Below, piece after piece: positions 43,089-47,108 of a DNA stretch of 64,000 bases. Position 1 is the stretch's first letter. Every line of letters starts with the position of its first letter. Source of the stretch: Candidatus Yanofskybacteria bacterium (GTDB taxonomy: Bacteria; Patescibacteriota; Minisyncoccia; 2-02-FULL-40-12; IGHO2-01-FULL-4-A); contig JACOZV010000001.1 in NCBI GenBank assembly GCA_016181175.1, positions 4,643-68,642 of the forward strand. The letters are read 5' to 3'. The translations under genes and the position numbers were made by a program. Under the pieces are notes generated by a model. That model was not told where the DNA came from. It saw nothing but the letters and a program-made list of their open reading frames with translations, and did no database searches.

Positions 43089-43198
43089 ATAAATAATAAG
43101 TAAATAGTAATAAATTAGTAGATAGTAGTTAAATATAAATAGGGTTTGGAACCCTATTTATATAATAATAGCATGTTTTATTTATGAAGTCAAGCATG

Positions 43199-43271
43199 TG
43201 CGCCTGCCAGGGCTCGAACCCGGAACCTACTCCTTCGAAGGGAGCCGCTCTTCCAATTGAGCTACAGGCGC
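43199..43271 (-). tRNA. tRNA-Arg (anticodon TCG)
   Basis: Acceptor GCGCCTG/CAGGCGC, D-arm GCTC-AATTGGAA-GAGC, loop CTTCGAA, T-arm CCGGG-TTCGAGC-CCTGG. Confidence 0.8.
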
Positions 43272-43324: not shown

Positions 43325-43927
43325 TTAGGATTCCAGAACGTGAATTTTTACTTGCTTCAACCCGAAGTCCAAGGCGCTTGTGCGATCTGGAAACCAAATA
43401 TCTATTCTGTACCAATATCTGCGATTCATTCTGTCTTCAACTGTGAAAATTTTATCGCCGTAAATATCCGGAATTTTTATTTTTGTGCCAAATGGTAAAA
43501 AGTTGGCAGCAATAATACCGTCACGAACCGTAGTGTTCCAAGCCGTTATAAATGGTGTGTCATCTGTTTGGTCAGGGGTTGAAGAGTAAGCCGTTGCATG
43601 AACTACCATTTCTCTTATCAGTTGGTTAGTGTTTTTTGTCTGAACTGATTTTATCACTTTTTGTATTACTGGAGAGCCAATAGAAACCAGAGAGTTGTTT
43701 TGAACCAGCGGCAAATTTTCCGGTTCTTTCTGGCTGTTGGGTAACTCGCTATTAACGTTTAAGTAAGAGGTCACAAAATTGAATATCTGAATTGTTGAAT
43801 CTTTTGAGTCTTCAGAAGTCCAGTTAAAAAGGGCCGCATTGGCCACAGGGAAACCAACCGAAAACACTAAAGTTAAAAGCGTCACTAATACCATCGTTTG
43901 TTTAATTTTTGTTATATTTTTGTTCAT
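43325..43927 (-). CDS. secreted 3D-domain protein (MltA/YocH-like cell-wall-associated)
   Basis: Signal peptide; VHATAYSS...DDTPFITAWNTTVRDGIIAAN...IDIWF matches the 3D domain pattern. Confidence 0.55.
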   Translation of the reverse strand: MNKNITKIKQTMVLVTLLTLVFSVGFPVANAALFNWTSEDSKDSTIQIFNFVTSYLNVNSELPNSQKEPENLPLVQNNSLVSIGSPVIQKVIKSVQTKNTNQLIREMVVHATAYSSTPDQTDDTPFITAWNTTVRDGIIAANFLPFGTKIKIPDIYGDKIFTVEDRMNRRYWYRIDIWFPDRTSALDFGLKQVKIHVLES

Positions 43928-44038
43928 TTTTGTAATAAAAAACAGCCTTTTTGGCTATTTTTCAACTAAAAAACCCGCCATAGCGGATTTATTACTTCAT
44001 TTTGTAAGTATAGCAAATTACCTACCCCAAAGTCAAGT

Positions 44039-44545
44039 CTAGTCCAAGGAGGTTGATTTTCTAAAAGGCCACATCGGCCAAAGTTTTTTTAGCATTAAAA
44101 GGCCAGGTTTTACTGTTAGAATGAATAAAAACAAACCAATTATGATATTGAAACCATCATAACTCCAGCGTGAAATGTCGTCATCCCTCAATTTGAGCCA
44201 CATGCCGAATTCGTCCATGGCTAAACCAAGTCCAAAACCATGCAGGAGAGCAACATAAAATTTTCCTCTAGCCGAATGCCTAGTTATTAAAGCGAGGTAC
44301 CCGGCCAAAAAAAGAATAAAAACGCCGTAAGTATAGTGGTGGACTTGAAGGCCCGGCTCAAGTTCTAAATAGAGATGGGGGATTACATTGTAAGTTATGA
44401 GATAACCAATTATGCGAGAACCAATAAAAGTAAGAATAAAAGCGACCAATATGGGAAATAGCAAAGCAACGTAAAGACCCGGTTCGTCGGTTTCGACTTT
44501 TCTGCGGATACCATCTCTCATTTTTTGAAAAATTGAGAAAAGCAT
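44039..44545 (-). CDS. membrane protein, hypothetical
   Basis: 4 hydrophobic helices. Confidence 0.35.
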   Translation of the reverse strand: MLFSIFQKMRDGIRRKVETDEPGLYVALLFPILVAFILTFIGSRIIGYLITYNVIPHLYLELEPGLQVHHYTYGVFILFLAGYLALITRHSARGKFYVALLHGFGLGLAMDEFGMWLKLRDDDISRWSYDGFNIIIGLFLFILTVKPGLLMLKKLWPMWPFRKSTSLD

Positions 44546-44551
44546 ATTTTT

Positions 44552-44650
44552 GGAGCGGGATAGTGAATGATGTTAGAACCTATTTCCAGTCATCAACTGA
44601 CTTATTTTATATACCTAGTTTATCAGCAGAAGCGGTTAAAATCAATTAAA
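44552..44650. repeat. 99-bp direct repeat, copy 1
   Basis: Identical to 45519-45617 (GGAGCGGGATAGTGAATGATGTTAGAACC...ATCAATTAAA). Confidence 0.9.
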
Positions 44651-44661
44651 CTTGTTAAAAC

Positions 44662-45039
44662 TTATTCTACGTAATATCCTGTGCCCTTTTCCCACTTTAT
44701 CTTGCCACGTAATGTCATAATAAGTACAAACACTATGGGAAAAAGCATTAACGGAAACAAAAAATATGGAACCCAGTCAAATCCGTTACCAGTTAGCTTC
44801 GACAGTTCTGGCCAAATCCAGAAAAATGTAAATGAAGTTCCTGTCAGCAATCCAGAAATTAACCACATAATTAGAAAACCTTTCAAGTCAGATTTATGTT
44901 CGGGCCTGCTTAAATAGTCCCAGTTATGGGCAATTCCTAAAGTTGGAATGCAAATAAAAAAGATTCCGCCAATGAAACCAATGGCTGTAAGAAAGTTTGC
45001 CAAAATTGTCATATTTTTCTCCTTTTTCAATGTACGCAA
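44662..45039 (-). CDS. small membrane protein, hypothetical
   Basis: 125 aa; 3 TM helices. Confidence 0.35.
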   Translation of the reverse strand: MRTLKKEKNMTILANFLTAIGFIGGIFFICIPTLGIAHNWDYLSRPEHKSDLKGFLIMWLISGLLTGTSFTFFWIWPELSKLTGNGFDWVPYFLFPLMLFPIVFVLIMTLRGKIKWEKGTGYYVE

Positions 45040-45140
45040 GCATATACTATCAAACGATTTGAATATGTCAAGGCCTGCCCAAAAAAGCGCGGGTTCTAAC
45101 CATCTTTATGAGTAACAAAAATAACCCAGCATTTAGTGGA

Positions 45141-45401
45141 TTATTTCAGAAGGGTTCTTTTCAAGGCTTGTTTGAGCTGATTCCTTCCAAAACCACTTTT
45201 TAGAAATACTTCTCTGGCTTTAGCATCTTGTTCGTTGATAAAGTACTCGTAATGAATAAGTTTTAATGGCCTACGATCTCTTGTTGATTTAACTTCACCG
45301 CGAGCGTGTTGCTGTAATCTGTTTTTAAGATTTGTAGTAAAACCAGCATAGAGTTTATTGTCTTTCAAGGATAGCAGGGTGTAAACGTAAAATCGTTCCA
45401 T
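45141..45401 (-). CDS. GIY-YIG nuclease-domain protein (stand-alone, 86 aa)
   Basis: FYVYTL...KLYAGFTTNLKNRLQQH...EYF matches the GIY-YIG core. Confidence 0.7.
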   Translation of the reverse strand: MERFYVYTLLSLKDNKLYAGFTTNLKNRLQQHARGEVKSTRDRRPLKLIHYEYFINEQDAKAREVFLKSGFGRNQLKQALKRTLLK

Positions 45402-45518
45402 AATTAAACACTGCGAAGTCTGACTTCGTAGCCAAAATCATATATAACTTATATAGAGAAGACGATGGCCAAGTCAAACTTGGTTCTCGTCATCCTCGGG
45501 CGCAACCGAGTATGACTC

Positions 45519-45617
45519 GGAGCGGGATAGTGAATGATGTTAGAACCTATTTCCAGTCATCAACTGACTTATTTTATATACCTAGTTTATCAGCAGAAGC
45601 GGTTAAAATCAATTAAA
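45519..45617. repeat. 99-bp direct repeat, copy 2 (overlaps the last 9 codons of the deaminase gene)
   Basis: Identical to 44552-44650. Confidence 0.9.
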
Positions 45618-46012
45618 TTGAACAGCGTTTGAGCCAATTTGAAATCTTCTATCCAGCGCGAGTTATCTGAAACTGGAGCAACAACTTCAGCAATTCCAGC
45701 TTGTATTACCATTGCGGTGCAAGGAGCACAAGACATAAACGGCCACGTATATAATCGGTACCCAACTACTGGCTCTCGTGCGAATAGCAGCGCATTCCGC
45801 TCGCAATGTACTATAATTTTGTATTTAATTTCTCGATTTTCCAGCCGTTCTGGTAAATCATTTACACCACGCGGGAAACCATTATACCCAATAGACACGA
45901 CTCTATTGTTGGGATCAACAATAACTGCTCCAGTTTTTGTTGACGGATCTTTACTCCATTGAGCAATATGTTCAGCAAGAGCTAAAAAACGTCTGTCCCA
46001 TTTTTCGGACAC
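45590..46012 (-). CDS. dCMP / cytidine deaminase (ComEB-like)
   Basis: HCERNAL and SCAPCTAMV zinc-binding motifs (H-x-E ... PCxxC). Confidence 0.75.
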   Translation of the reverse strand: MSEKWDRRFLALAEHIAQWSKDPSTKTGAVIVDPNNRVVSIGYNGFPRGVNDLPERLENREIKYKIIVHCERNALLFAREPVVGYRLYTWPFMSCAPCTAMVIQAGIAEVVAPVSDNSRWIEDFKLAQTLFNLIDFNRFC

Positions 46013-46147
46013 GACAACCTCCTTAATTAAAGAACGTATATGACAAGAGTAGTTTTTTTAGCAAACAGTGTCAAATTAACAAATAGGTTCTAACCCGCTA
46101 TTACCTGTATAAAAAATAGATAAGTAAAAATTAGGTTTTCCGTCTTG

Positions 46148-46218
46148 AGCGGGTAAGGGGAATTGAACCCCTCTCTCGTCCTTGGCAAGGACGCGTAATG
46201 CCGATATACCATACCCGC
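46148..46218 (-). tRNA. tRNA-Gly (anticodon GCC)
   Basis: Acceptor GCGGGTA/TACCCGC, anticodon stem CGTCC/GGACG with loop TTGCCAA, T-arm AGGGG-TTCAATT-CCCCT. Confidence 0.8.
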
Positions 46219-46229
46219 GATTTCTTTAG

Positions 46230-46300
46230 TGCCGGAGGGCAGAATCGAACTGCCTTCAGACGCTCTTCAGGCGCCTGCTTTACCATTAAGCTACTCCGGC
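46230..46300 (-). tRNA. tRNA-Phe (anticodon GAA)
   Basis: Acceptor GCCGGAG/CTCCGGC, D-arm GCTT-AATGGTA-AAGC, loop CTGAAGA, T-arm GGCAG-TTCGATT-CTGCC. Confidence 0.8.
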
Positions 46301-46974
46301 CTTCTTGGTTTTTGTAGATAGGGAAGTCCTAGATATTTATCCTGTTCAATCGCGTCTTTTATTTTACGATACTTTCTATTAAGACGCAAACGATGAGAGG
46401 GATAATACATTGTAGAAAAAAGTTTCTTAGTGTCTCCCTTTACATATTCTAAATTCCATACCCCAGAGCCTTTATGTAGATAACCCATAACGCTATAATA
46501 TTGCGTTAATTTATTTTTAAGCCAAGTCAGGAAATCTAAACTTGCCGAAGCTATGGATAATTTAAAAGAGAAACTACTAGGCCACCTTTTGTCCCTAAAA
46601 GTATAAAAAGTGCCATCTCCATCAAAGAGACCTCTCAAAAAATCAGGAAAATAAAGTCGGGGTACTTTAACACGTTTTATAGTTTTAGATTTAGCCGGAG
46701 TTAGGTCAATATCATTTAAGAATCTGTAGATATATATGTCACCAAAAGTAATACAATAGTATCTTTTTTCCGTTTCACCACCTCTGGCATATTTACCGAT
46801 TTTGTTACTTAGATGTAGGGATTTTTTAAATGTTTCAATGAGTTGTAAATCTTTAGAAGAGAACCATATATGCCTTCTGTCTTTATTCAAACACCCATCG
46901 GCCGTAATAAGCCCGATCGCATATGCTAAATCATTACACCACATAGTGCTAACTTTTCTTTGAACTCGACCCAT
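46291..46974 (-). CDS. LAGLIDADG homing endonuclease, two-motif monomeric type, free-standing
   Basis: Motif 1 LAYAIGLITADGCL; motif 2 LRGLFDGDGTF. The 3' end overlaps the 5' end of tRNA-Phe by about 7 nt. Confidence 0.8.
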   Translation of the reverse strand: MGRVQRKVSTMWCNDLAYAIGLITADGCLNKDRRHIWFSSKDLQLIETFKKSLHLSNKIGKYARGGETEKRYYCITFGDIYIYRFLNDIDLTPAKSKTIKRVKVPRLYFPDFLRGLFDGDGTFYTFRDKRWPSSFSFKLSIASASLDFLTWLKNKLTQYYSVMGYLHKGSGVWNLEYVKGDTKKLFSTMYYPSHRLRLNRKYRKIKDAIEQDKYLGLPYLQKPRRPE

Positions 46975-47059
46975 AAAAATATTATATCAAAAATTTTAAA
47001 TAACTGCCACCGAGCTAAAAAATAAATCCAGATCGTTTAAGTTGTGATATAGTCCAAAT

Positions 47060-47108
47060 TGCTTCGGAAGAGGCAGGCGTTGTCAGTTCGATTCTGACCC
47101 GCGGCACA
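47060..47108 (+). other. tRNA 3'-half-like fragment (T-arm GTCAG-TTCGATT-CTGAC plus acceptor CCGCGGC-A); no matching 5' half found
   Basis: Read directly; the terminal 16 nt CTGACCCGCGGCACAG are repeated at 47286-47301. Confidence 0.45.

Follow-up and report, generated by a model that had tools for sequence, protein, structure and literature searches.

A 99-bp module and a stand-alone GIY-YIG nuclease gene in a putative cassette island behind tRNA-Gly of a Candidatus Yanofskybacteria genome

Organization of the locus

This study concerns a 64-kb stretch of DNA from a Candidatus Yanofskybacteria genome, i.e. a member of the candidate phyla radiation (CPR), and in particular a 99-bp sequence, R, that occurs there twice and frames a gene for a stand-alone GIY-YIG nuclease-domain protein. 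The complete 64-kb stretch is called the window, and the coordinates of the locus refer to it. The genes of the locus are all encoded on the minus strand. Read in that direction, their order is tRNA-Phe, tRNA-Gly(GCC), a deaminase gene, R copy B, a 117-nt leader, the gene for the 86-aa GIY-YIG protein, and an open reading frame (ORF) for a membrane protein, followed by R copy A, the gene for a 168-aa membrane protein, a 200-aa gene, and tRNA-Arg.

The anchor of the cassette island is the tRNA-Gly(GCC) gene (46147..46218, minus strand, like all features below), which was called by ARAGORN and matches the Rfam tRNA model with 58 bits; its 3′ end, CCCGCTCA, runs from 46153 to 46146. It is followed by a segment termed “solo P” (46085..46134), a copy of the segment that elsewhere follows the stop codon of the GIY-YIG gene; it contains GGTTAGAACC, and no GIY-YIG gene precedes it. 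The dCMP/cytidine deaminase gene (45590..46012; Pfam PF00383, E value 4e-14) extends into R copy B (45519..45617), the 99-bp inter-cassette module. The GIY-YIG leader (45402..45518) begins directly after CCCGCTCC, the octamer at the end of R, and contains three palindromes as well as an A/T-rich stretch. The GIY-YIG gene itself (45141..45401) encodes a UPF0213-like protein, and the segment after its stop codon, P'' (45040..45140), carries GGTTAGAACC from 45100 to 45092 and a promoter-like site for the next gene. This next gene, the cargo gene for a predicted membrane protein of 116 aa (44662..45012), is followed by R copy A (44552..44650), which is identical to copy B and lies 6 nt upstream of the gene for a conserved CPR membrane protein (44039..44545; 168 aa as an ORF, annotated with 160 aa). 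A terminator-like hairpin after the 168-aa gene (43971..43990) is the approximate distal end of the extra DNA described below. The far flank of the island is a conserved 200-aa gene (43325..43927), after which tRNA-Arg is located (43198-43271).

The two copies of R in the window and in independent assemblies

The two copies of the 99-mer GGAGCGGG...CAATTAAA lie at 44552-44650 and 45519-45617, are 100% identical, and start 967 bp apart. When up to three mismatches were allowed, no further match appeared in the window, and there was no match at all in 100 shuffled sequences. The perfect 99-bp direct repeat that had been reported in a preliminary description of the locus is thus confirmed. The same description had placed an 86-aa GIY-YIG protein and a 125-aa membrane protein between the two copies. 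The former holds, with a match to Pfam PF01541 over residues 4-73 (52.7 bits, cut-off 22.6, E value 5.5e-14) that assigns it to the GIY-YIG superfamily, while the latter is likely to be shorter. The 125 aa are counted from a TTG start codon, and the ATG at 45012 results in 116 aa. This ATG is preceded by an AGGAG ribosome-binding site and by a promoter-like site, TTGACA-16-TAGTAT, at 45071-45044, and gene callers applied to an independent contig likewise predict 116 aa, so that the ATG is the likely start. A search of 5.8 billion proteins with the 116-aa protein retrieved only the protein itself, and it has no match in Pfam or NCBIfam. The protein records from a Candidatus Yanofskybacteria assembly are HYT61_00280 for the 116-aa protein and HYT61_00275 for the 168-aa protein.

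The Logan assemblies of two sequencing runs contain two contigs of the locus, i.e. L001 with the cassette and L003 with the 168-aa gene. Across its 1134 nt, L003 does not differ from the window, and L001 differs from it across 940 nt by a single 18-bp indel. Both contigs start exactly 30 nt before the end of R, as expected of a k=31 assembly graph that branches at a repeat; from there, the sequence of L001 runs on into the GIY-YIG leader and that of L003 into the 168-aa gene. At its other end, L001 stops 24 nt into R. The reads hence contain R leading out into both downstream sequences as well as the passage from the 116-aa gene into R, and the k=31 graph at R has the form of a loop. The deaminase-to-R junction was seen in the window sequence only.

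The 18-bp indel is a terminator hairpin, TGCGATGACCTCGCACTT, which lies between the 116-aa ORF and R in L001 (positions 893-910) and is missing from the window at 44651. The right edge of the deletion in the window is the first base of R. The hairpin is thus found in L001 and not in the window, indicating that sister populations differ at the 116-aa/R junction. The deaminase protein, whether given V or M as its first residue, had no exact match in the protein collection. Its three neighbors from the same genome assembly are on record there. The deaminase may be annotated differently, or as a pseudogene, in the source assembly.

R is a recurrent module with fixed ends

Searches with a hidden Markov model of R (nhmmer) gave matches in the contigs L009-L017, L019/L020, L021, L002, and L038, and in five genomic contexts other than that of the window R is found with 79-88% identity and the same ends. 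In L009-L017 (87/99 identical positions) the context is unrelated, i.e. R follows a GIY-YIG and a 66-aa gene and precedes a convergent penicillin-binding-protein gene. Upstream of homologs of the 168-aa gene, R is found in L021 (84/99), in L038 (87/102), and in L019/L020, where it has a 23-nt internal insert. L002 contains only a core of ~66 nt, which lies behind a different gene, and L034 contains only the 5′ third of R, twice, between consecutive small genes. An exact 30-mer of R had no match in species-representative genomes and a single matching contig, L002, in the JGI metagenomes, and the R core was not found in viral contigs. We conclude that R is a discrete noncoding module that separates small gene cassettes in an island 3′ of tRNA-Gly, in Yanofskybacteria and other CPR.

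The first bases of R, TTTTTAATTG, form the T-tract of a terminator hairpin in L001, L009, L019, L021, L034b, and L038, and the terminator stems before R differ in every genome. By eye, the T-tract is followed by two conserved boxes, TTGATT and TGATAAACT, which are separated by a variable spacer of 14 nt. The pattern TTGATT-N14-TGATAAACT is typical of a −35 box and an extended −10 box and would thus be promoter-like. The 3′ part of R is a conserved stretch of ~60 nt that contains GGTTCTAAC and terminates in CCCGCTCC. Between genomes R has identities of 0.79-0.88, far above the 0.47-0.58 of the synonymous positions of the GIY-YIG genes, yet below the 100% between the two copies in the window. 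This conservation above the level of synonymous positions suggests that R is constrained as DNA or as an unstructured leader.

Several other identities of R were considered and rejected. A structured RNA is not supported, because the fold of R is no better than those of shuffled sequences (z +0.88) and the fold of the alignment is devoid of covariation. Neither R nor the GIY-YIG leader has a credible Rfam match, and between 40000 and 50000 only tRNAs and chance-level hits were found at E<=1. Derivation from a tRNA gene, or a tRNA pseudogene, was dismissed save for the octamer, as a 151-nt stretch had no Rfam tRNA match at E<=10 and the alignment to tRNAs is significant for the terminal ~13 nt only. 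Finally, a small antisense protein gene (MMLEPISSHQLTYFIY...) was considered; its ORF is interrupted in L009, L019, and L002, and most of the substitutions, assessed by eye, change the amino acid. This antisense ORF (MMLEPISSHQLTYFIYLVYQQKRLKSIK...; plus strand, 44567-44674 and 45534-45632) is partly kept in L021 and L038 and is probably not coding.

L002 has two further peculiarities. At positions 545-600, a short, internally deleted R-like sequence, TTTAATTTATAAAAT...TAACATCCTCCCCGCAC, is located behind the terminator hairpin of a 76-aa ORF, so that the 76-aa cassette is also bracketed by R-like modules. In addition, the 5′ part of R resembles the 3′ end of a VUT/YhhQ-like gene (..TNFNPF..) upstream of the R core.

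The GIY-YIG protein, its leader, and the P segment

The best matches of the 86-aa protein in phmmer searches of solved structures were 1zg2_A (E value 8.9e-7) and 1ywl_A (E value 2e-6), both over residues 4-82, which characterizes it as a single-domain protein of the UPF0213 type. At E<=1e-5, 897 homologs were found, more than 100 of them with 79-95% identity and mostly on short contigs. The homologs span Yanofskybacteria, Harrisonbacteria, Levybacteria, and unclassified Patescibacteria, and no real relative was found in viral contigs. The identity of the GIY-YIG genes at third codon positions is 0.47-0.58, compared to an amino-acid identity of 0.80-0.95. The protein thus has a long history of divergence under strong purifying selection. 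A cluster of proteins with 93-95% identity is found at tRNA-Gly-GCC, at tRNA-Gly-TCC, and at R; its third-position identity is 0.54-0.58, which suggests that the relocations are old.

The three leader palindromes have the conserved core AAGTyNGACTT and show compensatory changes in the outer stem; in the consensus fold, five pairs are changed on both sides. The leader folds far better than shuffled sequences (z-score −3.95). Shortly after the GIY-YIG stop codon lies the segment P, a T-loop-like palindrome with the sequence GGTT(A/C)GAACC, or GGTCCGAACC in L021/L022. T-loop-like GGTTC(G/T)AA motifs are present on both sides of the GIY-YIG gene. P was searched for after the stop codon in L029/L030 and L033 and was not found there. 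The P'' segment of the window is similar to L038:513-567. Past P the sequence is variable, e.g. the tRNA gene, the GIY-YIG gene, and P are common to L021 and L022, whose sequences part 36 nt beyond the stop codon. The order behind the GIY-YIG stop codon is a T-loop-like palindrome, a promoter-like site, a cargo gene that varies, and a further R.

A fixed junction at the tRNA-Gly 3′ end

The 64 kb contain no more than three instances of the octamer CCCGCTC[CA], one at the end of tRNA-Gly and the others at the ends of the two R copies. In all five independent contexts that were fetched, the CCCGCTCC that terminates a tRNA-Gly gene is directly adjoined by the first base of the GIY-YIG leader. The anticodon of this tRNA is GCC in L019, L021/L022, and L033 (Levybacteria) and TCC in L009 and L029/L030. 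In the window, the identical leader start, GAGTCATACTCGG, follows the CCCGCTCC of R copy B and not a tRNA gene. Empty sites exist as well, i.e. tRNA-Gly(GCC) genes that are not followed by the GIY-YIG gene are found in L004, L008, L034, and the window itself. The gene is hence located after CCCGCTCC in six contexts and is absent from orthologous tRNA-Gly(GCC) sites, which amounts to a presence/absence polymorphism at a defined site.

The solo P of the window is 85-86% identical to L019:2200-2247, which begins 4 nt downstream of the GIY-YIG gene there. L004 and L008 do not have this segment, and their corresponding stretch measures only ~18 nt. Solo P could be what a lost copy left behind or, alternatively, a target site that is empty. 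In L034, tRNA-Gly is likewise trailed by a solo P in the absence of a GIY-YIG gene.

The slot behind tRNA-Gly can also be filled differently. In L038 (140-510), the position right after tRNA-Gly(GCC) is taken by another GIY-YIG gene, which encodes 80 aa with 33% identity and has an unrelated leader; the distal end of this gene (..TTCTAACATCATCCTCCCGCTCC) is similar to the 3′ end of R and restores the octamer CCCGCTCC. L029 and L030 are identical haplotypes save for 84 nt (L029 2313-2409) that are inserted in L029 at the 3′ end of tRNA-Gly(TCC) and flanked by the 13-nt direct repeat CCTTACCCGCTCC. Palindromic mini-inserts of ~50 nt (..TGAGCGAGGCTCGTCC...GGCCCGCTCA), which are bracketed by CCCGCTCA-like copies, are present in L034 (3082-3139) and L019 (2707-2765), one of them behind tRNA-Gly and the other behind R.

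Two observations concern tRNA-Phe. In the window, tRNA-Phe (46229-46300, minus strand) neighbors a LAGLIDADG-type ORF (46291-46974, minus strand; Pfam PF14528). Within the region 46229-47107, this ORF is flanked by inverted copies of the tRNA-Phe 3′ end, of which a partial one lies on the plus strand at ~47045-47107 (24-nt arms, 88% complementary). It looks like a second gene of the homing-endonuclease type that is linked to a tRNA gene. In L019 (1441-1739), a tRNA-Phe(GAA) that was not called by ARAGORN is seemingly split after the anticodon by an intron-like insert of ~225 nt.

Variable cargo and the truncated deaminase gene

The cargo between tRNA-Gly and the 168-aa gene differs from genome to genome. 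It consists of a 79-aa zinc-ribbon gene in L019, a 66-aa membrane gene in L021, a 141-aa gene in L038, four small genes in L034, and the deaminase gene plus the 116-aa gene in the window. R also lies in front of the 168-aa homologs of L019, L021, and L038. In L009, whose context is unrelated, this layout recurs behind tRNA-Gly(TCC), there with a 66-aa zinc-ribbon gene as cargo and no 168-aa gene.

In the window, R copy B overlaps the 3′ end of the deaminase gene by 28 nt, i.e. one base of the Asn132 codon, eight codons, and the stop codon, and the residues NLIDFNRFC are encoded by repeat sequence. The deaminase orthologs match residues 1-131/132 only, and synteny extends up to codon 131. At the DNA level, the homology between the deaminase gene of the window and its orthologs ends at 45628, ~11 nt before the edge of R. 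Five orthologs, two of them at 70% identity, end with ...LF(S/F)EA(R/G)V..L.., in comparison to ...LFNLIDFNRFC in the window. According to these alignments, R has taken the place of the conserved last 11 codons, and with them the native 3′ end of the gene. For annotators this means that the deaminase has a foreign C-terminus and may be impaired, and that R-like repeats break short-read assemblies at this locus.

Close relatives reveal the extent of the additional DNA. In L004, L005, and L008, whose deaminases have 81-84% aa identity to that of the window, an ortholog of the 200-aa gene directly follows the deaminase gene, and in L004 and L008 tRNA-Gly(GCC) is also located upstream and tRNA-Arg downstream. 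As these relatives do not have the intervening DNA, ~1.6 kb (45617 to ~44000) is extra in the window. Both the GIY-YIG gene and the 168-aa gene are absent from the five deaminase-ortholog loci that were fetched.

These comparisons also bear on the preliminary description. It had proposed that copy B covers the last codons of the deaminase gene and that the C-terminus is supplied by the repeat; the measured 28-nt overlap and the non-native C-terminus in comparison to five relatives agree with both proposals. The extra DNA turned out to be larger than the cassette described then, because the 168-aa gene past copy A is also absent from the deaminase-bearing relatives. That R is a duplicated deaminase 3′ end was ruled out, as the orthologs end differently and R is found where no deaminase gene is adjacent. 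A target duplication derived from the deaminase gene must be abandoned as well, because R keeps the same ends elsewhere without a deaminase gene (L009 88%, L038 85%, L021 85%, L019, L002). The idea of a mobile cassette is supported in part, in so far as the segment lies in a variable, recombining cassette region together with the GIY-YIG gene. A recent arrival of the GIY-YIG gene is contradicted by the codon positions. With its synonymous sites saturated, the gene has not freshly arrived, and only the R/R duplication is recent.

Origin of the repeat and alternative explanations

We interpret the locus as an island of variable cassettes downstream of tRNA-Gly, where a recent recombination at R gave rise to the arrangement R-cassette-R, and we propose a role of the nuclease in this process. 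The interpretation as a whole has, in our estimate, an even chance of being correct. Its anatomical part is well supported by the sequence comparisons, and the mechanism is what we infer from them. Since R sequences in other genomes are only 79-88% identical, two copies with 100% identity and sharp ends require a recent event of R copying. The order cargo, hairpin, R, and 168-aa gene is conserved in L019, L021, and L038. The deaminase/R junction has no hairpin and truncates a conserved gene, and it is therefore the derived junction. A duplicative, homology-dependent event at R, i.e. an unequal exchange or break-induced copying, could have placed a copy of R, the GIY-YIG gene, and the cargo next to a pre-existing R. 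Conversely, recombination of R with R would delete the 967-bp unit as a circle that carries one R. In analogy to the phage endonuclease SegB, the GIY-YIG nuclease might promote such events by cutting at or near the flanking T-loop-like or CCCGCTCC sequences.

Several points weigh against this interpretation. P and P'' are only 56% identical, which excludes a simple recent tandem duplication of the whole cassette. Neither an empty-site allele (deaminase-R-168aa) nor a circle junction was seen, reads being outside the scope of the analysis. The similarity of R to tRNA-Gly is limited to the last ~9-13 nt (local alignment, z ~3.5 at best), so R as a tRNA-like homology arm would depend on the octamer and a GGTTC motif. 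The putative promoter in R is below the scan threshold and was not called, with 8/12 matches counted by eye. The 86-aa protein consists of a single domain and has no DNA-binding module as in SegB or I-TevI, and the NCBIfam model of group I intron endonucleases, TIGR01453, reaches only 20.9 bits (cut-off 56.05) over residues 6-42; hence it does not have the domain composition of a free-standing homing endonuclease of the SegB/I-TevI type. The near-saturated third codon positions can be explained by a resident gene of great age under strong selection, but equally by an active selfish gene. The nuclease as the driver of the events is suggested by the analogy to phage SegB only.

A first alternative is a passive duplication. 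R would then be the terminator, promoter, and 5′-leader of the 168-aa gene family, the GIY-YIG gene would be a resident gene, and unequal crossing-over or template switching would have duplicated R, with the nuclease uninvolved. The position of R directly upstream of the 168-aa homologs in the window, L019, L021, and L038 fits this explanation, as do the promoter-like conserved boxes around a variable spacer, the conservation of the GIY-YIG protein at saturated synonymous sites, and the UPF0213-type single domain without a DNA-binding module. It is, however, difficult to reconcile with the three left flanks of the GIY-YIG gene, i.e. tRNA-Gly-GCC, tRNA-Gly-TCC, and R, which share only CCCGCTCC and occur even within the cluster of 93-95% identity. 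The varying presence of the gene at orthologous tRNA-Gly sites, the unrelated GIY-YIG gene in the same slot of L038, and the occurrence of R away from the 168-aa gene in L009 and L002 also argue against it, as does the fact that many homolog-bearing contigs are short or end soon after the gene. We regard a purely passive origin as plausible, though less probable than our interpretation. An assembly artifact is improbable. In this case, the genome would have one R, and the assembler would have threaded in a cassette from another strain, another locus, or a small circle that shares R. The loop in the k=31 Logan graph, with L001 both entering and exiting R and L003 exiting it at the identical base, would be compatible with an artifact, and the same applies to the restriction of the deaminase-to-R junction to the window and to the 18-bp hairpin by which L001 differs from it. 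On the other hand, a repeat of 99 bp should be shorter than typical short reads and thus resolvable, as judged from typical read lengths, and apart from this hairpin the window is matched perfectly by L001 (940 nt) and L003 (1134 nt). The conserved order cargo, hairpin, R, and 168-aa gene in L019, L021, and L038 gives the cassette a natural chromosomal place beside copy A, and the deaminase gene, without its native 3′ end, must be joined to something non-native.

Two further explanations invoke known types of mobile elements. A tyrosine or serine recombinase could have integrated DNA at the 3′ end of tRNA-Gly, with the repeats that end in CCCGCTCC as att sites. The island indeed adjoins a tRNA gene, and direct repeats of 8, 13, and 99 bp copy the tRNA 3′ end. 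Yet neither an integrase nor a recombinase domain was found in the ORFs of the island and its immediate flanks, the smallest inserts measure only ~50-85 nt, and R runs ~90 nt beyond the similarity to the tRNA, which makes this explanation very improbable. Classical transposition, with the repeat as a target-site duplication, is scarcely credible, even if a compact two-gene unit between direct repeats would be in line with it. No transposase domain and no terminal inverted repeats at the unit ends were found, and the duplications are of 8, 13, and 99 bp instead of a fixed length. To our knowledge, 99 bp is far above the length of known target-site duplications. Moreover, R is a module also in genomes in which it is single-copy, and this independent occurrence already contradicts transposition.

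The cassette island with recombination at R can be extended to a more far-reaching proposal, which we think is rather unlikely to hold in full. The 86-aa GIY-YIG nucleases of CPR might constitute a homing and cassette-capture system that is specific for the 3′ end of tRNA-Gly. The gene would insert after CCCGCTCC, R would regenerate the octamer, and units could stack, resulting in an integron-like array that is integrase-free and able to engulf and truncate even a housekeeping gene such as that of the deaminase. In the literature on GIY-YIG proteins in connection with Patescibacteria, CPR, or tRNA-Gly, we found no description of the arrangement, the leader, or R. CPR genomes are tiny, and gene gain and shuffling in them are little understood. 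If the proposal is true, a minimal nuclease gene at a tRNA end and a conserved spacer would form a hotspot for swapping small membrane-protein and zinc-ribbon genes, i.e. a compact gene-exchange platform without an integrase. The widespread, uncharacterized GIY-YIG proteins of the UPF0213 type would thereby gain a possible biological role.

Comparison with known systems

The island resembles tRNA-targeting genomic islands in its location 3′ of a tRNA gene and in direct repeats that reproduce the tRNA 3′ end (CCCGCTCC; 13 nt in L029). It differs from them in that an integrase is absent, the elements are tiny (50 nt to 1 kb), and the 99-bp repeat is mostly non-tRNA sequence. With integrons it shares small, promoter-poor, variable genes at one anchor, a recurring spacer, and a content that differs between close relatives. 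In contrast to integrons, there is no IntI-type integrase, no integrase domain is found in the island ORFs, and the anchor is the end of a tRNA gene. In addition, R is not an attC-like imperfect palindrome, i.e. it does not fold (z +0.88) and shows no covariation, and it carries a promoter-like element.

At the protein level, the closest likeness is to UPF0213/COG2827, which comprises proteins with a single GIY-YIG domain of ~85-107 aa and provides the best matches among solved structures (E ~1e-6). These structures are Bacillus halodurans BH0048 (PDB 1ZG2) and Enterococcus faecalis EF2693 (PDB 1YWL), and we take E. coli YhbQ to be another stand-alone GIY-YIG protein of this family. We know of no description of BH0048 or EF2693 as tRNA-linked or repeat-flanked. 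The CPR group differs by its unusually high conservation (80-95% identity) and by the fixed junction with tRNA-Gly.

With respect to genomic behavior, the best comparison is SegB of the phages T4 and T6, a free-standing GIY-YIG endonuclease encoded in a tRNA gene cluster, which recognizes the DNA of the TψC stem-loop and mediates homing (PMC2330249). SegB also drives the recombination-dependent tandem amplification of a 718-bp unit with segB and a tRNA gene in it, a process that requires UvsX and UvsY (PMC13096335). The host of the present system is a CPR bacterium and not a phage, and the protein is a bare catalytic domain of 86 aa without a DNA-binding extension. The link is specific to tRNA-Gly and its exact 3′ end, and the repeat is R, a conserved module of non-tRNA sequence. 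In both systems, a GIY-YIG gene is physically tied to tRNA genes. The target of SegB is the TψC stem-loop DNA of tRNA genes, and T-loop-like motifs flank the gene described here. Likewise, the homing of segB with flanking DNA and its amplified unit of ~0.7 kb find a parallel in the direct-repeat unit of 967 bp.

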